64,000 nt of DNA, taken from contig NZ_JBMFOX010000003.1 of NCBI RefSeq assembly GCF_049969415.1, forward strand, positions 8,960 to 72,959, given 5' to 3'. Below, in pieces: positions 2,720-55,728 of this stretch. A model generated the notes under the pieces. The model did no database searches, was not told the DNA's origin, and saw only the letters and a list, made by a program, of their open reading frames with translations. Position 1 is the stretch's first letter. Each line of letters begins with the position of its first letter. Both the position numbers and the translations under genes were made by a program. Origin of the DNA: Candidatus Hadarchaeum sp. (GTDB taxonomy: Archaea > Hadarchaeota > Hadarchaeia > Hadarchaeales > Hadarchaeaceae).

Positions 2720-3412
2720 ATGGTCAAGTTAGAGGACGCTGTTGTGGCAAGGCTCTCCAGCCACGGGACGACGTTTGAGGTGCTGGTTGATCCCGAGCTG
2801 GCGTTAAGCCTCAGACAGGGGGGCACCGTGGATATGCGCAGCCTGTTGGCGAGCGACAAGATCTTCAAGGACTCGAAAAAGGGTGATGTAGCCTCTGAGG
2901 AAATGATTAAAAAGGTGTTTGGAACCACCGACGTTTTCCAGGTTGCCGAGCAGATTGTGAAACGGGGGGAGGTTCAGGTCACCACGGAGCAGAGACGGAG
3001 AATGCGCGAGCAGAGGTTAAGACAGGTGGTGGCCATGATCTCCAGACGCGCAGTCAACCCGCAGACGGGGCTGCCCCATCCGCCGGCGAGAATTGAGTCG
3101 GCGATCAACGAGGCCAAGGTCCAGATAGACGAGTACAAGAGCGCCGAGGAGCAGCTTCCCAAGATAGTTAAGGCGCTAACACCGATTCTGCCGCTGAAAT
3201 TTGAGACGAAAAGGGTGGCGATAAGGATTCCGGCCAGCTATGTGGGCCGGGTTCAACGTACGGTGAGGGAGTTTGGGACGGTGAAACAGGAACAGTGGCT
3301 CAATGACGGCTCATGGGCTGTGGTGGTGGAAATACCGGCCGGAGTGCAGGGGGAGTTCTTCGACAGGCTCAACGACCTGACCCGCGGTGAGGTCGAGACC
3401 AAGGTGTTGTGA
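2720..3412 (+). CDS. ribosome maturation factor SBDS/Sdo1
   Basis: FEVLVDP, IFKDSKKG, NPQTGLPHPPARIE motifs. Confidence 0.96.
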   Translation: MVKLEDAVVARLSSHGTTFEVLVDPELALSLRQGGTVDMRSLLASDKIFKDSKKGDVASEEMIKKVFGTTDVFQVAEQIVKRGEVQVTTEQRRRMREQRLRQVVAMISRRAVNPQTGLPHPPARIESAINEAKVQIDEYKSAEEQLPKIVKALTPILPLKFETKRVAIRIPASYVGRVQRTVREFGTVKQEQWLNDGSWAVVVEIPAGVQGEFFDRLNDLTRGEVETKVL

Positions 3413-4104
3413 TGATTTACGTTCAGAATAGGGAGATTGTGGTTCCTGGGCAGTTGATTGCGGAAGGGGATTATCGGCACCTCGAGGGATCTTACCGCGA
3501 GGGCGACAAGATTTACTCGGCAGTGGTGGGGCTGGCCGATGTTAAGGGAGACAAGGTTAGGGTGATCCCTCTCCAAGGACGCTACATACCGCATGTCGGC
3601 GATCTCGTCATCGGGGTCGTCATCGACAACCACTCCTCGGGCTGGATACTCGATATTAACTCGCCTTACACGGCAAACCTGTTCGTTTCCGAGCTGGTGC
3701 ATCGCAAGGTTGACCTTAACAAAGAGGACATAAGCAAGTTCCTCAGCATCGGTGACGTGGTGCTTGCCTTGGTTAAGGAGGTCGACGAGTATATGCGGGT
3801 GCTGCTGGAAACCCCGGGTCGCGGTATGGGTAAGATCAAGGGTGGCAAGTTGGTGGAGATCTCGCCGGCAAAGATACCGCGGGTGCTGGGGCGCAAGGGG
3901 TCGATGCTTAAGGTGATAGAATCAAAGACCGGCTGTACCCTTGCCGTGGGTCAGAACGGAAGGATAATAATCTGGGGGAAGGACCCAGAAAGGATTAACC
4001 TAGCCGTGGAGGCAATACTCATGATCGAGCGCGAGGCGCACACCTCTGGTCTCACCGACCGGGTGTCGCTCATGCTTGAGAAAGAAAAATCAGGAGGAAA
4101 TTGA
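3409..4104 (+). CDS. rrp4: exosome RNA-binding subunit Rrp4
   Basis: VVPGQ, YIPHVGDLVIG (S1), IPRVLGRKGSM (KH), EREAHTSGLT. Confidence 0.96.
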   Translation: MMIYVQNREIVVPGQLIAEGDYRHLEGSYREGDKIYSAVVGLADVKGDKVRVIPLQGRYIPHVGDLVIGVVIDNHSSGWILDINSPYTANLFVSELVHRKVDLNKEDISKFLSIGDVVLALVKEVDEYMRVLLETPGRGMGKIKGGKLVEISPAKIPRVLGRKGSMLKVIESKTGCTLAVGQNGRIIIWGKDPERINLAVEAILMIEREAHTSGLTDRVSLMLEKEKSGGN

Positions 4105-4827
4105 ATGGAAAAACCGGAAAAATTGTTGATAGATGGAAAAAGACTTGACGGCCGAGCACCTGACGAGCTCAGGCCGTTGAAAATAAAGGCAGGAGTTCTC
4201 GAGCGGGCCGACGGTTCCGCATACGTCGAGCTCGGAAACAATAAAGTGTTTGCCGCAGTCTACGGACCGAGGGAAATGCATCCGAGGCACGATCAGCAGC
4301 CGGACGCGGCGGTGCTGCGTTGCCGGTACAGCATGGCGCCGTTTTCGGTAGAGGATCGAAAGAAGCCAGGGCCGGACAGGAGGTCGATGGAGATCTCCAA
4401 GGTTACCCAGGAGGCGCTGGAGCCCGTGCTTTTCCTTGAGCTTTATCCGAGGTCGGTCATCGACGTTTTCATTGAAGTGTTGCAGGCTGATGCCGGGACC
4501 AGAACTGCGGGAATTAACGCGGCCGCGGTGGCGCTGGCCGATGCCGGCGTGCCGATGAGGGACTTGGTTTCCTCGGTGGCGGTGGGCAAGATAGACGATA
4601 CCATCGTCCTAGACCTCATGAAGGAGGAGGACCAGTTTGGGACGACGGACATGCCCGTGGCGATTATACCGCGGAAGAAGGTGGTCACACTCCTGCAGAT
4701 GGACGGGCATTTCACCAAGGAGGAGTTCAAGCAGGCTCTGGACCTTGCCTTCAAGGGATGTGAGAAGATTTATGAGGTGCAACGGCAAGCGCTAAAGGAG
4801 AAGTATGCCATTAAGGAGAGCGAGTAG
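4105..4827 (+). CDS. rrp41: exosome exonuclease Rrp41
   Basis: [27 protein letters not shown]. Confidence 0.97.
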
Positions 4828-9170: not shown

Positions 9171-9773
9171 TTGTTGGAACGGATGAGGGCCTATTTTGAC
9201 AGCCAGGCGGAGCTGAGGGAGCAAGCGCTGGAGGCCTCGCGGCAGACGATCCGGGCCGCCGCCAAGGCGATTGCGGCCATCCATCGTGGGGAGCAAACGG
9301 CGGCGGACAAGTTCCTTGCCGAGGCGCGGGAGGGGCTGAATTCATTGGCGAAGCTGACCGCGGATGCCCCGGAGCTGGCGGAGTCGGGAATCGTGCTTTC
9401 AGCCCAGCAGGAGTATGGCGAGGCGGAGATAGTTAGGGCGGCGATCTTGGGAGGGAAGCTGCTGGAGGTCGACGAGATCGGCATCCCCTACAAGCCCTAT
9501 CTGGCGGCGCTGGCGGACGCGGCTGGTGAGCTGCGGCGCCACATCCTAGATTTAATCCGGGCTAACGAAATCGAGCGCGCTGAGGCCATGCTGAAGCTGA
9601 TGGAGACCATTTTTGAGTTCCTGATGGAGTTCGATTACGCGGACGCGGTGCTTCCCGGGATGAAGAGGCGGCAGGACATGTTGCGGCAGGTGCTGGAGAG
9701 GACCAGAGGGGACCTGACCTTGGCCCTGAGACAGCAGCGGCTCGAGCGGGCGCTGGAGAAGCGGGGCGGTTGA
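9171..9773 (+). CDS. translin/TRAX family RNA-binding protein
   Basis: helical protein with RE..L..SR, QEYGEA, YL..LAD..GELRR, R..LERTR. Confidence 0.88.
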   Translation: MLERMRAYFDSQAELREQALEASRQTIRAAAKAIAAIHRGEQTAADKFLAEAREGLNSLAKLTADAPELAESGIVLSAQQEYGEAEIVRAAILGGKLLEVDEIGIPYKPYLAALADAAGELRRHILDLIRANEIERAEAMLKLMETIFEFLMEFDYADAVLPGMKRRQDMLRQVLERTRGDLTLALRQQRLERALEKRGG

Positions 9774-11359
9774 GCTTGAAGTTCGATCTCAGGGAAATCA
9801 GGTCAAAGGCCGAGAGTGATTATGAGCGGACTTGGCTGGAGAGCGGGGAGCTGCTCGAGAAAAAGGGCAGGTTTTTCGCCCTGCAGCAAAAGGCTAAGCC
9901 CCATCCGCTGCAGGAGCTGATCATCGAGGTTAGGCGGGTTTTTCTAGAACTGGGATTCACTGAGGTGGTTTTACCCATTATTGTGGACAAGCGGGAGGTG
10001 CAGGCCCAGTATGGTCCCGAGGCCGCCGTCATCCTCGACCGGGTCTTTTTCCTAGCCGGGCTGGAGCGGCCCGATATCGGCATCGGTCGGAAGAAGCTGC
10101 AGGAGATAAAAAAGATTGTCCCGGATTTTGATGATCTGAAAAAGCTTCAGGGGATATTCCGGCGCTACAAAAAAGGAGAGATAGAGGCCGACAGCCTAGT
10201 TGAGGTCATGGCCCAGGAGCTGGGGATCAGGGAAGAACAGGCCACGGCTGTTCTCTCACTTTTTCCTGAGTTCAAGAAGCTCAGGCCGGTCCCGATGGAT
10301 CTCACCCTGAGATCGCACACCACGGCGGCCTGGTTTGGCGCCCTCCGGGAGCTTCAGCACCGGGAGCCGCTGCCGCTGCAGCTTTTCTCCATCGGCCCCA
10401 AGTTCCGGAGGGAGCAGAGGCTGGACGAAAGCCATCTTTACGAATCCTGGACCGCTTCGATGGTCATCATGGCGGAGAGAATGAGCCTGGAGGACGGGGA
10501 GGAGATCACTAAGCAGGTTTTTTCCAGGCTGGGGTTCGACGAGGTCAAGCTGGTCCGGAAGAAGACCACATCGAAGTACTACGCTCCTCAGACGGAATCA
10601 GAGGTCTTCGTCAGGCATCCCAAGACCGGAGAATATCTCGAGGTCGGCGATGCCGGGTTCTACAGCCCGGTGGCGCTGAGCAACTACGACATCGCCTACC
10701 CAGTCTTCAACCTGGGCATCGGTCTGGAGCGGTTGCTGATGATCCGGACAGGTGAGACGGATATCCGTCGGCTGGTCTTTCCCTATCTCTATGGCACGGT
10801 AAAGTTCTCCGATGAGGAGCTGGCGGCGGCGATAAAGCTGCAGCGGGAGCCCAGCACCGAGGCCGGCAAAAGGATTGCTGAGGCCATCGTGAGGACGGCC
10901 CGGGAACACGCCGACGAGCCGAGCCCCTGCGAGTTCAAGGCCTACGAGGGTGAGTTGGCGGGCAGGCGGGTGGTCGTGAAAGTTGTGGAGCCGGAGAACA
11001 GCACCAAGCTCATCGGCCCGGCTGGTTTCAACGAGATTTACGTCTACGACGGCAATGTTGTCGGCGTGCCTCCGAAGGGGTGGGAGGACAACAGCTTCCT
11101 GAACGCCGTTCGGAGCCGGGGCAGGGCGACTGGAATTTCGTACTTGGCTGCATTCGCGGCTCTGGCGGCCGCGGAGATAGAACAGGCAGCCCAGCGAGGT
11201 GAGAAGGAGGTAAAAATCCGCGTTCGGGCGGCCAAGTCCCTAGCTGACGTTAACCTCAGGCTGGACGAGGCGGCGCAGCGCTACATAACCTCGAACAACA
11301 AAAAAATCGATGTCAGGGGTCCGGTTTTCACCACGGTGGTGGCGGAGTTCAAAACCTGA
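9770..11359 (+). CDS. sepS: O-phosphoseryl-tRNA(Cys) synthetase SepRS
   Basis: QYGPEAAVILDRVFFLAGL.RPDIG, TLRSHTTAAWF, FRREQ, YSPVALSNYDI, KKIDVRGPVF. Confidence 0.95.
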   Translation: MSLKFDLREIRSKAESDYERTWLESGELLEKKGRFFALQQKAKPHPLQELIIEVRRVFLELGFTEVVLPIIVDKREVQAQYGPEAAVILDRVFFLAGLERPDIGIGRKKLQEIKKIVPDFDDLKKLQGIFRRYKKGEIEADSLVEVMAQELGIREEQATAVLSLFPEFKKLRPVPMDLTLRSHTTAAWFGALRELQHREPLPLQLFSIGPKFRREQRLDESHLYESWTASMVIMAERMSLEDGEEITKQVFSRLGFDEVKLVRKKTTSKYYAPQTESEVFVRHPKTGEYLEVGDAGFYSPVALSNYDIAYPVFNLGIGLERLLMIRTGETDIRRLVFPYLYGTVKFSDEELAAAIKLQREPSTEAGKRIAEAIVRTAREHADEPSPCEFKAYEGELAGRRVVVKVVEPENSTKLIGPAGFNEIYVYDGNVVGVPPKGWEDNSFLNAVRSRGRATGISYLAAFAALAAAEIEQAAQRGEKEVKIRVRAAKSLADVNLRLDEAAQRYITSNNKKIDVRGPVFTTVVAEFKT

Positions 11360-12645: not shown

Positions 12646-13308
12646 CTATTTAGTCTGCATCGCCCGGGTGGCGATGACGTGGGCGAGCCTCAGCGGCTCG
12701 GGCAAGCGATGCTCTCGGGTCGTTTCCAAAGTGATTTTAATCGCCGTCGGGAGCGAGATTTTGTGCCCAACGCTGACGTACACGGGCCGGCCTCTGTCTC
12801 TGGTCCTGACCACCGCACCGATGGTTTCTCCGTCTTCCTTCAGCAGGGAAAAGCTGCCCCGCATTTTTCCCGGTTCCTCGGCCCCACCGCAGAGCTTGGA
12901 TTTGGCCACCCCTAGCGTCGGCCGGTCGAGGATTACCCCGAGATGGCTGGCGAGCCCCGCCCGTCTCGGGTGAGCGACACCTTGGGCCCCGACCATGTAC
13001 ACGTCCGCCTCAATTCCATGCAGGACCTTAAGCATTCCCTCCAGCTCCCGGAAGGCGAGGAAGGTGGGCAGGTAAGGAAATTTCAGCTTGAGCTTGATAG
13101 CCCTCTGATCAAGAACCTCCAAAGCAGGATAACTCAGGACCACCGCGGCCGCAAAGGCCCGGTCGCTTTGGGCAAAGGAGATGTCGCATCCGGCAATCTT
13201 CTCCAACTTGCTGAAGCCATCGCTCTGGACGACCCTTTCGGCGACCCGCTCCTGCACCTTGGCCAGTTCCTTCAGGTCTAGCTTCGGCGGGGTCAGGAGT
13301 GGCAGCAT
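12646..13308 (-). CDS. nfi: endonuclease V
   Basis: AGCDISF, FPYLPTFLAFRE, G.AHPRRAGLASHLG, GVAKSKL, YVSVGH, LPEPLRLAH. Confidence 0.95.
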   Translation of the reverse strand: MLPLLTPPKLDLKELAKVQERVAERVVQSDGFSKLEKIAGCDISFAQSDRAFAAAVVLSYPALEVLDQRAIKLKLKFPYLPTFLAFRELEGMLKVLHGIEADVYMVGAQGVAHPRRAGLASHLGVILDRPTLGVAKSKLCGGAEEPGKMRGSFSLLKEDGETIGAVVRTRDRGRPVYVSVGHKISLPTAIKITLETTREHRLPEPLRLAHVIATRAMQTK

Positions 13309-13634: not shown

Positions 13635-14714
13635 TTGTCGCGGGCGACCCCCGAGGATCACGTACTGATGTCGTTGGCGATAAAGAGGGTAGGCAGATTT
13701 GTTGAGCTTTCCCATATCCAAGAGAAGATAAGCCGCGATGCCGGCAGGAAGTTTTCCGAGGAGGAGACGAGACAGCTCCTGGACTCCTTGGTGAAGAATG
13801 GCCTAGTGGTGGAGAAGGCGGGCGAGTATTCCCTGTCCGACCGCGGCCGGGAATATTTTGAGAAGAGGTGGCGCCAGATCAGGTCGGAGCTGAACCAGGA
13901 TTATCTCAAGGTCTACCGGGCCAAACGTTATTATCCCCAAGTGGTCGATGTTCTGCTTGAGTTCTGCCGCGACCGCTGGGTCTCGGTTTTCAGGCTCTTC
14001 ACCGGCAGGGCTTGGCTGCAGCGGAAGCTGGGGCCCAAATACATCACGATCAAGAGCCGAGAGGATATCGAGAGGTGGTTGGATATCCACGGTATCGACT
14101 TCATTCCCTACCTGCACCGGGTGGGCAGCGACCGTCCCGACTGGCTGGTCATTGACTTTGATGCGGGAAAGGGGGTTCCTCTGGAGGAGACCAAAAAGGT
14201 GGTCCGGACGGCGCATGAGGTGTTGGTGGGTTATGGGGTCGAACCGGCGCTGAAGTTCTCGGGATCGCGCGGTTTCCAGATCTGGGCGCGGTTCAAGCCC
14301 CACGAGTTGCCGCCAGACTACCGGCCCAAGCCGCTCAGGACCGAGAGGAGGGAGCGCAACCTCTTTAGCTTCTATGCGGACATCGTCAGATTTGTGGAGT
14401 CGCGGGTTGCCGAGAAGCTGCCCGGGCTGACGACTTCAGAGACGGCGAAAAAGGAGGAACGGGCCAACAAGGTCCTGCTCGATGCCTCGATTATCAAACC
14501 CATGGGTGATGTCCGGGCTCCTTACAGCATGCACTACAAGACCGGACTGATTTCCATGCCGCTGTCAATTGGGGAGTTGACGAAGTTTGTTCCCGACCGG
14601 GCTGACCCCGAGCTGGTGGCCGAACGCTATCGGGAGAGGGGCAACGAGTTCCAGCCGAGGGAGTGTGACGGAGAGGAACTCTTCAAAGACACCGTGGAAT
14701 GGTGTCGCGCCTGA
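13635..14714 (+). CDS. wHTH-fused archaeo-eukaryotic primase-polymerase (LigD polymerase-domain-like)
   Basis: N-terminal L..LVKNGLV...GEYSLS.RG wHTH; YY..V...LL, RPDWLVIDFD (motif I), KFSGSRGFQI (motif II), KVLLD (motif III), RAPYS. Confidence 0.82.
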   Translation: MSRATPEDHVLMSLAIKRVGRFVELSHIQEKISRDAGRKFSEEETRQLLDSLVKNGLVVEKAGEYSLSDRGREYFEKRWRQIRSELNQDYLKVYRAKRYYPQVVDVLLEFCRDRWVSVFRLFTGRAWLQRKLGPKYITIKSREDIERWLDIHGIDFIPYLHRVGSDRPDWLVIDFDAGKGVPLEETKKVVRTAHEVLVGYGVEPALKFSGSRGFQIWARFKPHELPPDYRPKPLRTERRERNLFSFYADIVRFVESRVAEKLPGLTTSETAKKEERANKVLLDASIIKPMGDVRAPYSMHYKTGLISMPLSIGELTKFVPDRADPELVAERYRERGNEFQPRECDGEELFKDTVEWCRA

Positions 14715-17575: not shown

Positions 17576-17687
17576 TGGCGGGCCCGGTGGGATTCGAACC
17601 CACGACCGATCGGTTAGCTCCCAATCGACCGTTAAGAGCCGATTGCTTTTGGCCGGAAACCCGACTGCCAGACTGAGCCACGGGCCC
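17576..17687 (-). tRNA. tRNA-Lys(CTT) with two introns (22/23: 17648-17664; 37/38: 17615-17632)
   Basis: Spliced: GGGCCCG TG GCTC AGTCTGGCA GAGC A ATCGG CTCTTAA CCGAT CGGTC GTGGG TTCGAAT CCCAC CGGGCCC G CCA; first intron has a clean BHB (TGGC/GCCA), second a relaxed motif. Confidence 0.92.
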
Positions 17688-24612: not shown

Positions 24613-25389
24613 ATGCGGCTGCTGCTCCGGCTGAAGTCGGTTAAGGATCAGTTCTATGACCTGAGGTACCACCACAAGCTCCAGGGGTTCATCTACAGCC
24701 TGCTTGATGGGTCGCCCTACGTCAGGCTGCATGATAAAAGGGGATACAAGTTCTTCTGCTTCTCGAACATCTTTCCTGAAAGGGGCGAGAAAAATGATCC
24801 AGCCCAGGACATGTCGGCAGGCGAGGTCAGGCAGCTTTTGATCTCTTCGCCGGAGGTTGGGCTGATCGGGTTTTTGAATGACAGATTGGTTAAGATTGTG
24901 GATGAAAGAGCTGAGGTCAACATCGGGGACATGTCCTTTAGGGTCGAGTCGGTTAACGCCCTTGAGCCTAGACTGGGCAGGTCATGCAGGCTGGTCACCG
25001 GGACGCCGATCGTGCTCCGCATACCAAAGGAGAGGTTTGAGAGCTACGGCATCGTTCCGCCTAGGGATTACGATTACGTTTACTGGAGAAAGGAATGGCC
25101 CTTTGAACCCTTCGTAAAGCAGCTGGAGGAAAACCTGTTTAAGAAATATCGCGAGTTTTACGGCGGGGCGGCCGAGGAGTTCCCCATCTTTGAGCAGTTC
25201 GTGTTCAAGAAGACGGTCTGCAATCACGTCGTAATGGGGGGGAAGGAGGTCAAGATGCTCGGTTCCATCTGGGAGTTCCACTTCAGCTATTTGGAGGGCA
25301 AAAAGCGGGAGTTGATTCAGTTTGGTCTGGATGCCGGGTTCGGAGAGCTGAACTCAATGGGGTTCGGGTTTATGAACGTGGTGAGGTGA
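24613..25389 (+). CDS. cas6: CRISPR-associated endoribonuclease Cas6 (orphan in this window)
   Basis: YHHKLQGFIY, LHD..GYKFFCFS, TPIVL, NL.KKY, C-terminal G-rich loop GFGELNSMGFG. Confidence 0.92.
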   Translation: MRLLLRLKSVKDQFYDLRYHHKLQGFIYSLLDGSPYVRLHDKRGYKFFCFSNIFPERGEKNDPAQDMSAGEVRQLLISSPEVGLIGFLNDRLVKIVDERAEVNIGDMSFRVESVNALEPRLGRSCRLVTGTPIVLRIPKERFESYGIVPPRDYDYVYWRKEWPFEPFVKQLEENLFKKYREFYGGAAEEFPIFEQFVFKKTVCNHVVMGGKEVKMLGSIWEFHFSYLEGKKRELIQFGLDAGFGELNSMGFGFMNVVR

Positions 25390-25456
25390 AAAGGGTTGGT
25401 TCGGGTCAGATGGTGAAAGCTTATTTTTACAGCGACAGAATGTTGGGCGGGAGAAG

Positions 25457-25864
25457 ATGGGTGAAAAAGAGGAGATAATCAAGAAAATCGTGGAGACTCT
25501 GTGGGGTTTTAAAGAGGTTGAGCTGGCTTACGTGTTCGGCTCCTTTTACGCCGGGAGAGAGTTTGAGGACATAGACATCGCGATATTGTTATCGAAGCCA
25601 CCCTCGGCGTACGAGTCCGAGAGGTTTGCCATGAAGGTCGCGGGGGCGCTTGAAACTGCGCTGGGGCACAAATTTGAGTTCGACGTGAAGGTTCTCAATT
25701 TCTCCCCGATCTACTTCCAGCATGAGGTCATCAGGGACGGCAAACTGCTCTTTTGCAGGGATGAAACCAAACGGGTCGAGTATGAGGCCGGGGTTCTGTC
25801 CGAGTACCTGGACTATCGGGAGGTCCTGGACTGGTTTGATGAAAAATTGCTCGCGAGGGCTTGA
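25457..25864 (+). CDS. minimal nucleotidyltransferase (MNT) antitoxin
   Basis: YVFGS....DIDIAI, FDV.VLN.SP. Confidence 0.9.
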   Translation: MGEKEEIIKKIVETLWGFKEVELAYVFGSFYAGREFEDIDIAILLSKPPSAYESERFAMKVAGALETALGHKFEFDVKVLNFSPIYFQHEVIRDGKLLFCRDETKRVEYEAGVLSEYLDYREVLDWFDEKLLARA

Positions 25865-25865
25865 G

Positions 25866-26294
25866 ATGTTCGACAAAAGGGGGATAATTGATCACATAAG
25901 GGAACTCGAGCAGGCGATGGAGGACTGGCGGAGGTACCGGAGCATCCCGCTCGAGGAGTTGCGGCGGGATAGGGACAAGCGGAACATGGTCCTGCACGCC
26001 CTGCTGGTCGGCATCCAGGCAACGATCGACATAGCGAACCACCTGATAGCCGAGCGTAGCCTGAAAAGGCCATCGACCTACCGGGAGAGCTTTCAGATAC
26101 TCTCGGAGACGGGCTTGATCCCATCCGGGCTCTCCGATGGGCTGTCGGAACTGGCCGGTTTCAGAAATGTGCTGGTCCACCTCTACTGGGGGCTCGATAT
26201 CGAAAAGGTTTACGGGGTATTGGTGTCCGGGCTGAAGGTCGTGGAGGAGTTTGGAAAACTTGTGAAAAAAATGATATCCTCAGGGGGTCCTTAG
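25866..26294 (+). CDS. HEPN/DUF86 ribonuclease toxin
   Basis: IDIANHLI, P.TYRE.F, FRNVLVHLY (Rx4H). Confidence 0.92.
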   Translation: MFDKRGIIDHIRELEQAMEDWRRYRSIPLEELRRDRDKRNMVLHALLVGIQATIDIANHLIAERSLKRPSTYRESFQILSETGLIPSGLSDGLSELAGFRNVLVHLYWGLDIEKVYGVLVSGLKVVEEFGKLVKKMISSGGP

Positions 26295-26318
26295 AGGTGT
26301 TGGCCTTTACTTGCTGGG

Positions 26319-26640
26319 TTGAGGGCCAGAGGGCGGACGCTGAAAACGCGCAACTACCCTATCGTTCCGGACAGAAAGTCGATGATCGGGCTGGACCTCA
26401 AGGGGATTTACGACGAGATGGGCAGGCGCACCTTCGGTAGATGGATGTCGTTCAAGGGGATGAATATCCACATGGTCTCAGCTGAGGCGGCGTTCCACAC
26501 ATCGCTGAAGTGATTGCAGTTAAGATGAATATCCACATGGTCTCAGCTGAGGGCACCATCGCCAGCAAGGTGGTGTTCGGCAGCGAGCAGGACCTAAAGG
26601 ACGCCGAGGTGAAAGATTGTAGGGGGCATCACCAGATTGG
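26319..26640 (+). pseudogene. nucleotidyltransferase-like gene remnant interrupted by a duplication
   Basis: Removing one repeat plus the insert gives ...IHMVSAEGTIASKVVFGSEQDLKDAE, resembling the xEDxIxxK...xDxxD C-terminus of AbiEii/DUF6036-like NTases. Confidence 0.45.
26459..26552. repeat. perfect 29-bp direct repeat (26459-26487, 26524-26552) separated by 36 bp
   Basis: GATGAATATCCACATGGTCTCAGCTGAGG x2. Confidence 0.95.
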
Positions 26641-26699
26641 AACCTTCCCCCTTTTCATACGCGCTTTTTAGGGGTCCGCTGAAAAGTTTTGAGGACTAG

Positions 26700-27118
26700 C
26701 TGAATCAAGTCGTTGTTCTTGGAAAAAGGGCGGAGATGCCGGCTCCGTCCTCGGGAGGGAAGCCAGAGAAGGCAGCGAAAGCGACGTTTTGGTGGAGATC
26801 GAAAGCAATATGAGTTTGCTCGATTTCGTGGTGGCTCAAGCCGGAGATAGAAGTTTGGGAGAGAAAAATCGATTTGGTTGAATATGGCATGATTAAGCCC
26901 CTTCATAGAGTGAGGATCAAAGAGCAAGCGGCAACCTGCGAAGAGGGTTGTGAAGGTATACTCCGCAATATCTTAGAAAACATCTTAAAAAATAGAAGAA
27001 TGCATCAAGGCGGTTTCCAAAATAGGGGACTCGTTTATACTTTGGTTTTAAATTGGAGAGAACTTTGAAAATAGTTAAAGATTACATTCCGGATTTGGAA
27101 GGTAAAATGAAGATGTAA
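26700..27118 (+). pseudogene. second, decayed MNT-HEPN(DUF86) toxin-antitoxin pair
   Basis: Frameshifted pieces: GS...EAREGSESDVLVEIESNMSLLDFV / RKIDLVEY..IKP (MNT); LRNILENI / YFGF.LE....IVKD.IPDL (DUF86). Confidence 0.6.
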
Positions 27119-27388
27119 GAAGTTCTCCCAAAAGGAGTCCCGTAGATACGGCTTTTACGGGAGAAAAGGAAGGCGCTCGGATAAATCCAAGGTGAGTTGG
27201 TGCAACTTTCTAATTACAATGACAAACAATGCCTCTGGAGAGCGGCCCTGTGTCAGCGGACTAATAGTCCATCTCAATTTTTACAAATTCGAAAAAATGG
27301 TAACAACCACCCCTCCGGTCAGCTGAGAGCGAGATGACGTTAAGGAGGAAAAACAGGGCGATTTTAAGATTCCTTGGCGGGGCGGCTG

Positions 27389-28750
27389 TCAGCGCTTGCT
27401 GAGGCTCTTTAGAACACCAACGATTTTCCCTGCCTCTTCCACCAGTCTGTCTGCGGTTCTCCTCTCCATCGGCGTGGAGATGCAGAACATCCCCCGCGGC
27501 GAGATGAAGATGCCCTCGTTGAGCAGGGAGAAGAAGAAGACCCGCGCCGCGATCTCGTCAGCGGCCATCGCGCTCCGATAATCGACGACCTCCCCCCTGG
27601 TGAAGTGGACATGGCGCAGTGAACCGGCCCCCGTCACCCGTGCAGCGACATCGGCCTCGGCAAAAATCTTCTTCAGCTCCTGGGCCAAGTATTCCCCCAT
27701 CCGGTTGATCCTGTCGATGGCCGTGGCGTTCAGTAGCTTCAGCGTCGCCATGCCCGCCACCATCGCCAGCGCGTTCCCGTTGAAGGTCCCGGCGTGGTGG
27801 ATGAACTCCCGCCGCTCGGGCGAGAAGAGCTCCATGACTTCCTCGCGGCCGCCGAAGGCCCCGGCGGGAAGGTCGCCCCCGATTATCTTTCCGAAGGTGG
27901 TGACGTCAGAGGTCACGCCGAAGAATTCCTGCGCCCCGCCCACGGCCAGCCGCGCCGTCATCACCTCGTCGAAGATCAGCAGGACATCGTTTGCCTCGGT
28001 GATCTCCCGCAGGAATTGCAGGTAGCCCGGCCTCGGCGGTATCTGCCCAGCGATGCCCAGCATCGGCTCGACGATGACGGCCGCCAGCTCCCTCCGGTTT
28101 TGTCTGATGATCCTCTCCGCGGCTTCAGCGTTGTTGAACGGGGCCACGAGGACCTCCCGGGCGACGCCCTTCGGTATTCCGGGACTGTCGGGCAGGCTCA
28201 GCGGGCTCTCGGCCTCTCCGGCAAGCTCCGGGCGCGGTCGGGCGCTGATCTCGACCTCCGGATAGCTGCCGTGATAGCCCCCTTCCATCTTCAGGATCTT
28301 GTCCCTGCCCGTGTAGGCTCGGGCGGCCCGGATGGCCATCATGTTGGCCTCGGTGCCCGAGTTGCAGAACCTGATCCTTTCCACAGACCTGAACCTCCGG
28401 CAGATGATTTCGGCGAGGCGGTGCTGGGATTCGATGGCGGCGGCGCAGGTCCAGCCCCTCTCCAGCTGCTCCTTGATCGCCGCGACGATCCGGGGGTGGG
28501 CGTGGCCGTGAACTGAGGAGGTATAGTTGTTGACGAAATCGAGGTACCGGTTGCCGTCGACATCGTAGATCCAGCAGCCGCGGCCCCGCGCCATGACAAA
28601 GGGATAGGGACTGAAGTAGACCACGCTGCGCGTGTTCCCCCCGGGCAGAAATTTCCTCGCCCGTGCATGGATTCTCCTAGAGGCGGGCGTCCTGCGCCGG
28701 TACTCCTGCAGGCAGGCTTTCAGCGGGTCAACCCCAGGCATAAACTCCAC
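27389..28750 (-). CDS. class III PLP aminotransferase (glutamate-1-semialdehyde aminomutase-like)
   Basis: PGGNTR, DVDGNRYLD, FCNSGTEA, LIFDEV, GKIIGG, HAGTFNGN. Confidence 0.9.
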   Translation of the reverse strand: MEFMPGVDPLKACLQEYRRRTPASRRIHARARKFLPGGNTRSVVYFSPYPFVMARGRGCWIYDVDGNRYLDFVNNYTSSVHGHAHPRIVAAIKEQLERGWTCAAAIESQHRLAEIICRRFRSVERIRFCNSGTEANMMAIRAARAYTGRDKILKMEGGYHGSYPEVEISARPRPELAGEAESPLSLPDSPGIPKGVAREVLVAPFNNAEAAERIIRQNRRELAAVIVEPMLGIAGQIPPRPGYLQFLREITEANDVLLIFDEVMTARLAVGGAQEFFGVTSDVTTFGKIIGGDLPAGAFGGREEVMELFSPERREFIHHAGTFNGNALAMVAGMATLKLLNATAIDRINRMGEYLAQELKKIFAEADVAARVTGAGSLRHVHFTRGEVVDYRSAMAADEIAARVFFFSLLNEGIFISPRGMFCISTPMERRTADRLVEEAGKIVGVLKSLSKR

Positions 28751-53927: not shown

Positions 53928-54875
53928 TTAGACCAGCAGTCGGCCCGTTTCCATCAGCAGTTTTCCGTCCAGCGTGACGGTGGGGTTCTTGAAGATACCG
54001 TCGATGTGAATGCCCGCCTTCACCCGGCCGCCGAAGGTGGAGTTGTCCCCGAGCGCCACGTGGCAGGTTCCGAGCACCTTTTCGTCCTCCAAGACCTGTC
54101 CAATCAATCGAGCCTTGGAGTTGGTGCCGACGCCGAATTCAGCCAGGTTCCGTGCCTTTGGTCCGGCCTCGTCCAGCATTTTCGTCAGTTTTCTGGCGGC
54201 GGACCCGGATATTTTTTTGGCCATTCCCTTCTCGATGATGATTTCAGTTCTCCCGGTGGTGGTGTCGATGATGGAGCCGTCGACGACCACCCTTCCCTCT
54301 CCGGTTCCCTCCACTGGGGCGATGAAGGCCTCCCCCGCCGGAAGATTGCCGAAATCTCCCGGTCGGTGGAAGAGGCCGGTGTCGGGATGGGTCTTCCTTC
54401 CCTTAATGCTGAAGCTGAGTTCAGTACCGGCCTCTGTAGTGACCTCGACTTCTGAAGCCCGGTCGAGGAGAGCGGCGACCTTTTTAGTCAGCCGGGCCAC
54501 TTCCTGATAGTCGGCCAGCATAGCCCCTTGCTGCATCATCTCCTCGGTGATGCCCGGCATGGTGGCCACCCTGGCCCCGGCTGCGCAGGCCCTCTTGCGC
54601 GCCTGGGTATGGGTAATGGAATAAGTGGTGGGTGCAATGACCACGTCAAAATAGGTCATCGCGAGCGCCACCGGTTCAGGCGGTTCCTGTCCGTGTCGTT
54701 GACCAACCGGCATGCAGATTAACGTCACCGCCGTCCCGCGCTCCCGGGCAACATCCGCAATTGTTTCCGCGATTTTCATTTTAGGCGGGTCGGTAACGAT
54801 AAGGACAGTTTCTCCCCTTCGAATCCTCAGGCAGGTGTCGACCACAATTTTGGCGCCGCGGATCATGGGGTTCAT
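53928..54875 (-). CDS. M29/aminopeptidase T-like metallopeptidase
   Basis: GQEPP, SITHT.AR, GNLPAGE.F.AP, AE.G.GTN, EDEK..GT.H.ALG, HID. Confidence 0.88.
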   Translation of the reverse strand: MNPMIRGAKIVVDTCLRIRRGETVLIVTDPPKMKIAETIADVARERGTAVTLICMPVGQRHGQEPPEPVALAMTYFDVVIAPTTYSITHTQARKRACAAGARVATMPGITEEMMQQGAMLADYQEVARLTKKVAALLDRASEVEVTTEAGTELSFSIKGRKTHPDTGLFHRPGDFGNLPAGEAFIAPVEGTGEGRVVVDGSIIDTTTGRTEIIIEKGMAKKISGSAARKLTKMLDEAGPKARNLAEFGVGTNSKARLIGQVLEDEKVLGTCHVALGDNSTFGGRVKAGIHIDGIFKNPTVTLDGKLLMETGRLLV

Positions 54876-54886
54876 GAAAATACCCG

Positions 54887-55171
54887 CTAGATAAGTCCCG
54901 CCTTGAACAGTTCCTCACGAAAAGCCGAAAGAATCTCGCGAATGGCCCCTTCCTCAGCCGCGTGGATCTCGATGTAGCCATTCGGGAACAGCAGCAGGTA
55001 GTTGCCCCGTTTGAGGGTGAATTTTACCACAGTCTTCTTGGAGGTGGTGATGGACTTGACGTTGGGGAGCCGCTTCAGGACCTCGGTGATGTCCAAGGTC
55101 TTGTTGATTTTTGAAATTGCCCGCACCGACTTTATCTTGGGAACTTCGAAGATATCGTGAATGCGCGGCAT
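54887..55171 (-). CDS. stand-alone single TBP-like domain protein (94 aa)
   Basis: KI..V.A......LD...VL..LPN ... LLLFPNG.I.I..A...AIREIL......L.KAG matches the pattern of one TBP repeat. Confidence 0.65.
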   Translation of the reverse strand: MPRIHDIFEVPKIKSVRAISKINKTLDITEVLKRLPNVKSITTSKKTVVKFTLKRGNYLLLFPNGYIEIHAAEEGAIREILSAFREELFKAGLI

Positions 55172-55238
55172 CTCACTTACAGATGGGCTGTTTTCCTCCA
55201 CCTTAACCCCTGCTTGAGTTGGGCTGATGGCATTTAAA

Positions 55239-55445
55239 TTATACGCGCTTGGCGGCCAGCCGGATGTCCACGTCCCGCACCGTTCTCCTTCCTGCGTGTT
55301 CGGCGAGTTTCGCCGCTTCACCGGCAATCTGTATCGCCCGCTCCTCCAAGACCTCGGCGAGCGCAATCGCGGCATCCTCGCTCACACGCTTGGCCCCAGC
55401 CTTCCTTATAACCCGATCTATCGCCGCTATTGGCAATTCCACCAT
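55239..55445 (-). CDS. archaeal histone (HMf family)
   Basis: ELPIA.I.R.IR.AGA.RVS.DA...LA..LE......A..A..LA.HAGR.TV...DI.LA. Confidence 0.97.
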   Translation of the reverse strand: MVELPIAAIDRVIRKAGAKRVSEDAAIALAEVLEERAIQIAGEAAKLAEHAGRRTVRDVDIRLAAKRV

Positions 55446-55728
55446 TTTTCTACCTCCTCAGTTTATTCCAGCCATTTAAGAGCAAATTTTCTTTATTTAA
55501 GGCACTATTTAAAGCTATCTGATGGAGATTGACCCGTAAAGCGTTTTTCGATTAAAATATGTTTTGTTTTACAGCATTAAAGAGGTATCGTCAGGTTTAG
55601 GGCAAATAATTTTAAAATTTTGATTTTACCGATGTTTTGTTGGTAAATTTAGCAGAAAAAAGATTTAGTTTTTACATACTCGATAATTTCTTTTAGACGG
55701 AAAAACAACCAAATCAGATAAAATGACG

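Follow-up and report, generated by a model that had tools for sequence, protein, structure and literature searches.

A putative stand-alone TBP lobe encoded beside a histone gene in Hadarchaeota and its predicted homodimer

Canonical archaeal TATA-binding protein (TBP) is a two-lobed chain of about 180 amino acids (aa). Proteins with only one TBP domain have also been described. Brindefalk et al. (2013; PMC3597702), whose candidates were taken from Pfam TBP alignments, report monopartite TBP-domain proteins of 82–136 aa from Pyrococcus and Thermococcus. The sequences of these proteins are far removed from that of TBP, their predicted fold is that of TBP and their function is unknown; the 96-aa Pyrococcus furiosus protein NP_578195 is an example given in Table 3. 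In the same work, the single-domain TbpA of Halobacterium clusters with true TBPs, and the words histone, dimer and operon do not occur in the main text. Single-lobe TBP versions in archaea are also noted in PMC7221094, according to which the N-terminal domains of RNase HIII and RnlA are single TBP-like lobes as well, with a conserved aromatic residue, at a position termed L5.1, that contacts double-stranded nucleic acid. Here, we describe a gene for a putative stand-alone TBP lobe (half-TBP) that lies directly downstream of an archaeal histone gene in a stretch of 64,000 nucleotides (nt) from Candidatus Hadarchaeum sp. (contig NZ_JBMFOX010000003.1; the whole stretch is referred to as the window henceforth).

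As reports of stand-alone TBP domains in Thermococcales go back to 2013, this kind of protein is not itself new; the new points are the histone linkage, an N-terminal arm and a predicted dimer. The original prediction for this locus, made from the DNA letters, had named RNase HIII and some glycosylases as carriers of single TBP domains, a list that omitted both the stand-alone Thermococcales proteins and Halobacterium TbpA (PMC3597702). Compared by published description, the Thermococcales proteins and the half-TBP are alike in being small and euryarchaeal and in having one TBP domain that is far from TBP in sequence and predicted to adopt the TBP fold. However, the Hadarchaeota family lies below the Pfam TBP threshold, unlike the Thermococcales candidates drawn from Pfam alignments. 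TbpA, encoded on the Halobacterium plasmid pNRC100, is likewise a stand-alone single lobe (100 aa; PF00352 E-value 9.1e-27), but it is a close derivative of full-length TBP, whereas the Hadarchaeota family is separate and far more diverged, also from the haloarchaeal TBPs with which it was compared using hhalign. The RNase HIII and RnlA domains are bacterial, fused to nucleases and mostly carry Tyr or His at L5.1; in contrast, the half-TBP is archaeal, stands alone without a nuclease, has Phe at L5.1 and is nearer to archaeal TBP than to RNase HIII or RnlA in Foldseek comparisons. Set beside canonical archaeal TBPs (Pyrococcus woesei 1pcz and 1ais, Sulfolobus 1mp9, Methanocaldococcus 2z8u), it matches the fold and strand order of one lobe with template modelling (TM) scores of 0.60–0.66. 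Unlike those proteins, it has one lobe per chain of 104 aa, lacks the second repeat and carries an extra conserved N-terminal arm. The single domain stays under 150 aa and has no second domain next to it, being bounded by the histone gene and an M29-like peptidase gene.

The gene and the two parts of it on which the following sections draw are given below in window coordinates; residues are numbered from the GTG codon of the long form.

54887..55201, minus strand: half-TBP gene, long form, GTG start, 104 aa plus stop (from translation, AlphaFold2, Foldseek and start conservation)
54887..55171, minus strand: half-TBP gene, short form, 94 aa plus stop, whose ATG start is Met11 of the long form
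54959..55000, minus strand: codons 68–81, motif YLLLFPNGYIEIHA (S4, loop, S5), the most conserved stretch, with Phe72 at 54986–54988
55105..55171, minus strand: codons 11–32, conserved N-terminal arm (P12, F18, P21) and S1, predicted core of the homodimer interface

Predicted fold and dimer of the half-TBP

The window protein was modelled by AlphaFold2 from a 7-sequence alignment (predicted local distance difference test, pLDDT, 84.4; predicted TM score, pTM, 0.76). The model comprised strands at residues 22–32, 48–52, 57–64, 67–71 and 76–80 and helices at 38–44 and 85–100. A second model, of a family member that is 52% identical (from the locus designated L018; 33-sequence alignment), showed the same topology with a pLDDT of 90.4 and a pTM of 0.83. 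Both models follow the S1-H1-S2-S3-S4-S5-H2 order of a TBP lobe, with one unit per chain, and both display the five-stranded curved sheet backed by two helices that defines the TBP domain.

Foldseek comparison with the Protein Data Bank (PDB) placed TBPs at ranks 1–23 for the window model and at ranks 1–9 for the L018 model, where archaeal TBPs occupied ranks 1–5. The best match for both models was the TBP of Pyrococcus woesei (1pcz_A; probability 1.00), with E-values of 2.6e-3 and 2.4e-3 and query-normalised TM scores of 0.66 and 0.65; the L018 model superimposed on it with a root-mean-square deviation of 2.3 Å over 80 columns. RNase HIII chains were absent from both lists of the best 50 matches, and a single RnlA chain (6y2s_A) appeared at rank 43 with a probability of 0.47. 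The NC2–TBP–DNA structure 1jfi was listed through its TBP chain only. These results make it very likely that the window protein is, by fold, a stand-alone single TBP lobe. The single TBP domain that the original prediction had read from a sequence pattern was thereby borne out, as two models with the TBP order had TBPs as their top structural matches and an archaeal TBP as the first.

Sequence searches weigh against this assignment. The window protein had no match in Pfam or NCBIfam at E-values up to 10, including none that reached the gathering score of PF00352; a phmmer search against PDB sequences gave only chance matches (E-values of 0.42 or more), and the family profile had no match in the PDB at E-values up to 10. 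Furthermore, no Foldseek match of either model reached an E-value of 0.001; the statistics are therefore modest, though the ranking was consistent over two independent models. In favour of the assignment, when 27 members were scanned singly, PF00352 (TBP) was the family matched by most, in 5 of the 27, all below threshold and with a best E-value of 0.0011.

Starting from the annotated TBP genes of plasmid pNRC100, haloarchaeal TBPs were collected as a reference set, and 22 of them were aligned. Using hhalign, residues 22–102 of the half-TBP family were placed on the whole N-lobe of this alignment (columns 9–90; E-value 0.034; 21% identity). The E-value was 0.067 against one TBP and 0.033 against Halobacterium TbpA, the latter over 27 columns only. 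A shuffle control also counts against the assignment, since 12 of 300 column permutations scored as high; the reversed alignment scored 9.9. Because the similarity was marginal (P 0.034), hhalign served only to set the register, and homology is not argued from it. This register is in keeping with the secondary structure of the models.

In this register, the motif YLLLFPNGYIEIHA aligned with the TBP stretch L-I-F-x-S-G-K-x-V-C-T-G, and Phe72 fell on the Phe after S4 of both TBP lobes, a residue that canonical archaeal TBP and the half-TBP share. Fifteen residues are invariant across the 33 aligned family sequences, among them Y68, L69, L70, F72, P73, Y76 and E78. The Phe after S4 is position L5.1 (F116 in yeast), which PMC7221094 describes as the most conserved position of TBP lobes and, among TBP, viral TBPs and RNase H3, as the minor-groove contact that is best conserved. 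In contrast to canonical TBP, with its stirrup Phe and P-E-x-F-P-G motif, the half-TBP has a short basic T-S-K/N-K turn without acidic residues, and Lys55 stands opposite the TBP stirrup Phe, an assignment that comes from the marginal alignment. Of the two DNA-kinking Phe residues of each TBP lobe, one is thus kept, as F72, and the other replaced by Lys. The original prediction had stated that the Phe of an LLxF pattern is retained and the FPG stirrup lost, and the register agrees with it on both counts.

Two of these residues speak against a TBP-like use of the surface. One is Lys55, in place of the stirrup Phe. The other is the invariant Glu78, which stands where S5 of canonical TBP has Val. 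In the dimer model described below, the neighbouring I77 and I79 contact the arm of the partner on the helix side, so Glu78 should face the concave side, and the near-invariant His80 is on the putative concave face as well. An acidic Glu78 on that face is unlike the DNA surface of TBP and could mean a different ligand.

Two-copy folding with the family alignment gave an interaction score (interaction prediction score from aligned errors, ipSAE) of 0.73 (runs 0.71–0.74), compared with 0.01 for the best of three controls. Among proteins solved as same-chain pairs, 20 of 30 reached the ipSAE mark used, as did 1 of 23 proteins solved as single chains. At least 96% of contacts agreed between runs, with a partner pLDDT of at least 86. 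The tightest contacts were 26:26, 27:23/24, 28:21–24 and 30:18–22; therefore, the S1 strands are predicted to pair antiparallel about a two-fold axis at Val26. The interface consists of residues 11–12, 14, 17–34, 77, 79, 84, 87–88, 91–92, 95–96, 98–99 and 104, and residues 11–21 of each chain reach S5 (77, 79) and H2 (84–99) of the partner.

In TBP structures, S1 and S1' lie side by side at the centre of a ten-stranded sheet. The predicted S1–S1' pairing matches this arrangement of the lobes, so the dimer model would rebuild a TBP-like saddle from two chains. We consider it probable, on the strength of these models, that the half-TBP forms a two-fold symmetric homodimer; a homodimer had also been proposed in the original prediction. 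Two points weigh against it. The predicted interface is not enriched in conserved residues, as it comprises 33 of the 104 residues and holds 10 of the 29 conserved positions (hand count); conservation is densest in S4-loop-S5, which lies outside the interface, in the region of the DNA contacts of TBP. In addition, a pass in the dimer score may reflect likeness to solved structures, and the two-lobe chain of TBP is such a template.

Gene family, histone linkage and start of the gene

A word-indexed search recovered 7 close relatives of the window protein. A search with the family profile returned 161 proteins at E-values up to 1; the 120 of them that were listed were all 94–130 aa long and 44–100% identical, and the named ones among these 120 were all from Hadesarchaea/Hadarchaeota, with the exception of one labelled 'Methanobacteriota archaeon'. 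An exhaustive phmmer search of 1.84 billion representatives of all lengths gave 7 matches. Four were real (69–105 aa); the other three were ankyrin or PKD repeat proteins and were rejected as spurious. No longer, fused relative was found among these representatives.

Scanning one genome per species yielded 21 loci, all in metagenome-assembled genomes of Hadarchaeota. The half-TBP is 46–91% identical across the recovered loci, and none of the 21 carries a frameshift or a stop. Positional entropy in the gene body was 0.76/0.36/1.34 and 0.81/0.54/1.45 at codon positions 1/2/3, that is, third positions (1.34–1.45) were far more variable than second positions (0.36–0.54). This coding-type pattern indicates that the half-TBP ORF (open reading frame) is a real gene and not a chance one. 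All 27 members analysed are basic, with isoelectric points of 9.4–10.1 and net charges of +3 to +8; the isoelectric point is about 9.5 for both the window protein and the neighbouring histone.

Look-alikes in the ESM Atlas were clusters of 93 aa and 98 aa from Thermoplasmatota and a 98-aa archaeal cluster with 1031 members, 13% of them with PF00352 (score 0.89; 188 of 256 features shared). As a lead only, these look-alikes would place the Hadarchaeota family within a wider set of archaeal half-TBPs. A canonical TBP was sought in the window and the 21 loci, and none was found above chance in their 240,919 bases. The half-TBP had no tblastn match in plasmids and phages at E-values up to 1. Literature searches, with supplements outside their scope, turned up no publication that deals with a TBP-domain protein of Hadarchaeota or with a half-TBP linked to a histone.

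The neighbouring genes and the upstream signals are as follows.

55239..55445, minus strand: archaeal histone gene (68 aa plus stop), on the strand of the half-TBP gene and next to it on the upstream side
53928..54875, minus strand: M29-like gene, 315 aa, downstream of the half-TBP gene (weak Peptidase_M29 match, Pfam PF02073, E-value 8.4e-12)
55232..55238, minus strand: TTTAAAT box, TATA-box-like, abutting the stop of the histone gene and lying 37 nt ahead of the GTG start
55206..55210, minus strand: GGGGT motif at -9..-5 from the GTG start, a Shine-Dalgarno-like site or transcription start region

The product of the upstream gene matched Pfam PF00808 (E-value 2.4e-16) and the NCBIfam entry archaea_histone NF043032 (E-value 2.8e-23), both above their cut-offs, and fits the HMf-type histone fold of about 65–70 aa. 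In all 21 loci, the half-TBP gene is immediately preceded on its own strand by the histone gene (85–96% identity), and the histone/half-TBP pair is the sole junction that is never broken among the loci examined. The original prediction had recognised the upstream gene as a histone gene and had named conservation of its linkage across related genomes as a check; both points held.

The broadly conserved order in the clade is purA, histone, half-TBP, M29-like and glmS. In L007–L021, purA is directly adjacent to the histone gene and divergent, and in the window, L001, L002 and L004 three genes (for a thymidylate kinase, a membrane protein and a UbiA-type prenyltransferase) stand between the two; the thymidylate kinase gene is the next gene upstream of the histone gene in the window. 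In L001, the membrane-protein and thymidylate kinase genes (3221–3902 and 3919–4481) each matched in two pieces in different frames, possibly as a result of frameshifts or assembly errors. glmS is inverted in L019.

In the window, 11 nt separate the half-TBP stop from the start of the M29-like gene, and in other loci an ATG comes at a comparable spacing after this stop. The two genes are probably co-transcribed. The M29-like gene follows in 18 of the 21 loci, and no tblastn match to it was obtained after the half-TBP gene in the remaining three, in the regions L007:5313–5376, L018:5316–5334 and L021:5313–5855. A short stretch past the half-TBP stop resembles the start of the M29-like gene in L007 and L021 and then meets an early stop in L021. 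This suggests that the M29-like gene was deleted or decayed.

Translation from the ATG at 55171 yields exactly the 94-aa protein of the original prediction, with every motif quoted there. The ORF is on the strand of the histone ORF in a different frame and ends at 54887; the gap between the histone stop codon (55241–55239) and this ATG is 67 nt, as had been given. An in-frame GTG lies 30 nt upstream of the ATG, at 55201. A start codon at this first position was aligned in 22 of 22 loci, as GTG (12), TTG (8) or ATG (2), and the ten codons between the two starts never contain an indel or a stop in these loci. The ten extra codons are coding-like (positional entropy 0.91/0.69/1.33 at codon positions 1/2/3), and an in-frame stop directly precedes the first start codon in several loci. 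The ATG at 55171 is also kept in 22 of 22 genomic loci, and gene callers in public data differ in which of the two starts they choose, with proteins of 94/95 or 104/105 aa as the result. The first start is conserved and the ten codons are intact; therefore, the GTG at 55201 is probably the start rather than the ATG, with a protein of 104 aa and a gap of 37 nt to the histone gene. A 162-aa ORF at 54887..55375 that runs back into the histone gene was rejected as a longer protein, as it is not conserved, stops being present there in other loci.

Upstream of the first start codon, a TTTAAA, TTAAAT, TTTATA or TTTAAG box begins at -38..-35 in 20 of 22 loci, and this spacing is fixed although the distance from the histone stop to the start varies from 21 to 98 nt. 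The TTTAAAT-type box may thus be the archaeal TATA box of a half-TBP promoter, which would give a very short leader. In a crude survey, several other window genes had TATA-like boxes 28–42 nt before their start codons, which suggests short leaders there too. In the GGGGT motif, G is found at -9, -8 and -7 in 21, 22 and 22 of 22 loci, respectively, and T at -5 in 21 of 22. As a ribosome-binding site, the motif would fit the GTG start, and the mRNA would then begin further upstream, possibly at a histone promoter. The TATA-like box at -37 predicts a transcript start within the GGGGT motif, a reading that competes with that of a ribosome-binding site. The histone gene itself has a strong GAGGAGGT ribosome-binding site just upstream of its ATG and three TTAAAT/TTTAAA boxes at -68, -55 and -34 from it (window 55474–55513, minus strand), and may have more than one promoter.

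In a Pfam scan of 73 ORFs, the rest of the window was found to be ordinary archaeal housekeeping, including genes for the exosome, the proteasome, SepRS, GatD/E, glmS and purA. A 529-aa protein encoded at 9770–11356 (plus strand) combines a class II tRNA synthetase core with the SepRS C-terminal domain (PF18006, E-value 2.9e-8); it is probably an O-phosphoseryl-tRNA synthetase, which would imply tRNA-dependent cysteine synthesis. A Cas6-type gene (24613–25386, plus strand) and a HepT-like ribonuclease gene (25722–26291, plus strand) were also observed, and Tandem Repeats Finder detected no repeat array in 25000–27500, so no CRISPR array is evident beside Cas6. Genes for a LigD-type primase-polymerase, endonuclease V, an AP endonuclease 2 family protein and a PCC-domain protein adjoin one another (13635–14711, plus strand; 12649–13308, minus strand) in what looks like a small DNA-repair cluster. 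Rfam recorded no RNA family at the half-TBP locus, and its sole matches in the window were two tRNAs elsewhere. One tRNA match, at 17579–17687 (minus strand), spans 109 nt against a 71-position model and is probably an intron-containing archaeal tRNA gene.

Possible roles of the half-TBP and their meaning

In the explanation that we favour, a chain of about 104 aa with an isoelectric point of about 9.5 would consist of the conserved arm and the S1-H1-S2-S3-S4-S5-H2 core. Two chains would join through antiparallel S1 strands, each N-terminal arm crossing to S5 and H2 of its partner, to form a ten-stranded saddle. The concave face would carry the invariant Phe72 at the minor-groove aromatic position of TBP and RNase HIII, and its ligand would be double-stranded nucleic acid, DNA being the likeliest. 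As each lobe has a single Phe and its stirrup is short and basic, DNA would presumably be bent in a manner unlike that of TBP, and recruitment of TFB, for which canonical TBP uses its acidic C-terminal stirrup, is not expected. The gene would be expressed from its own TATA-like box against the histone stop, probably with the next gene on the same transcript. Because the gene pair is kept throughout the Hadarchaeota loci examined, the protein may join the histone in acting on chromatin or promoters, either in an architectural role or as a modulator of transcription.

As a whole, the statement that the half-TBP is a putative homodimeric, chromatin- or transcription-associated protein that binds double-stranded nucleic acid is plausible, and we put it forward tentatively, as something slightly short of probable. 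The part of it that concerns chromatin or transcription draws on synteny and is the more doubtful. All loci come from one phylum, so inherited gene order suffices to explain the adjacency, and the position beside the histone gene may be inherited synteny without a functional tie. Moreover, the tighter coupling, a gap of 11 nt, is to the peptidase-like gene and not to the histone gene.

A protein of this fold could instead be a generic duplex binder like the N-terminal domain of RNase HIII or RnlA, with an RNA–DNA hybrid or double-stranded RNA as ligand and no part in chromatin or initiation, its place beside the histone gene being inherited gene order. The single lobe with its L5.1 aromatic would suit such a binder, as would the missing stirrup Phe and acidic stirrup residues and the broadly conserved purA-histone-ORF-M29-like-glmS order of the clade. 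However, archaeal TBPs led the Foldseek lists, in which RNase HIII was missing and RnlA represented by one chain among the best 50; no catalytic domain is fused to the half-TBP, whose real phmmer relatives are short; and a TBP-like dimer is predicted. We regard a generic duplex binder as rather unlikely. The persistence of the histone junction in 21 of 21 loci, through rearrangements on both sides, could also be understood if the half-TBP bound the histone protein and not DNA through its TBP-like sheet or helices; it might then be a chaperone or a capping factor, or modulate the polymerisation of the histone. Glu78 and His80 on the putative concave face, unlike the DNA surface of TBP, would be in line with this, and histone-fold pairs such as NC2 bind TBP in eukaryotes, a parallel that likewise favours a histone partner. 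Nevertheless, both proteins are basic to the same degree, which disfavours a direct complex without DNA, and the half-TBP ORF has a promoter-like box of its own; a role as histone partner seems improbable.

The 11-nt spacing to the M29-like start, the similarly close ATG in other loci and the presence of this gene in 18 of 21 loci raise the idea that the half-TBP is an accessory or regulatory subunit of the M29-like peptidase, its TBP-like fold serving as a generic alpha/beta ligand-binding module. This is quite improbable, as the half-TBP is kept where the pair is broken in L007, L018 and L021, and nucleic acid is the ligand suggested by the strong basic charge, by the invariance of the Phe at L5.1 and by the TBP-like dimer. 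Still less credible is the reading that a TBP paralogue lost one repeat and left the half-TBP as a fast-evolving remnant with little or no function of its own. Halobacterium TbpA shows that such truncations happen (PMC3597702), but conservation at 46–91% identity over the phylum-level range of recovered loci, coding-type substitution, the 15 invariant residues in 33 sequences and reading frames intact in 21 of 21 loci are at odds with a remnant, and the distance from TBP in sequence fits a recent truncation badly.

TBP presumably arose when a gene for one lobe was duplicated, and before that event the lobe would have had to dimerise to form the saddle. The half-TBP might then be a living example of the state before duplication, a homodimer on symmetric TTTAAA-type boxes that works with the co-located histone, although we hold this to be unlikely. 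One such box stands before the half-TBP's own gene. If true, the half-TBP could mark or limit histone polymers at promoters, or be a competitor of TBP that is independent of TFB, and chromatin would be tied to promoter recognition in a manner loosely like that of the eukaryotic histone-fold partners of TBP.

The stand-alone lobes of Thermococcales have been known since 2013 and are still uncharacterised. The Hadarchaeota family described here is a clean, strongly conserved case found throughout the recovered Hadarchaeota loci, in which a confident homodimer prediction rebuilds the saddle, the universal minor-groove Phe is kept, the stirrup Phe and acidic stirrup residues of TBP are absent and the gene is always paired with a histone gene. 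As a small, basic and probably easily expressed protein, the half-TBP would allow a tractable test of whether a single-lobe homodimer binds and bends DNA and of what it does beside histones; if its function proves unrelated to DNA, the family would be another re-use of the TBP fold.

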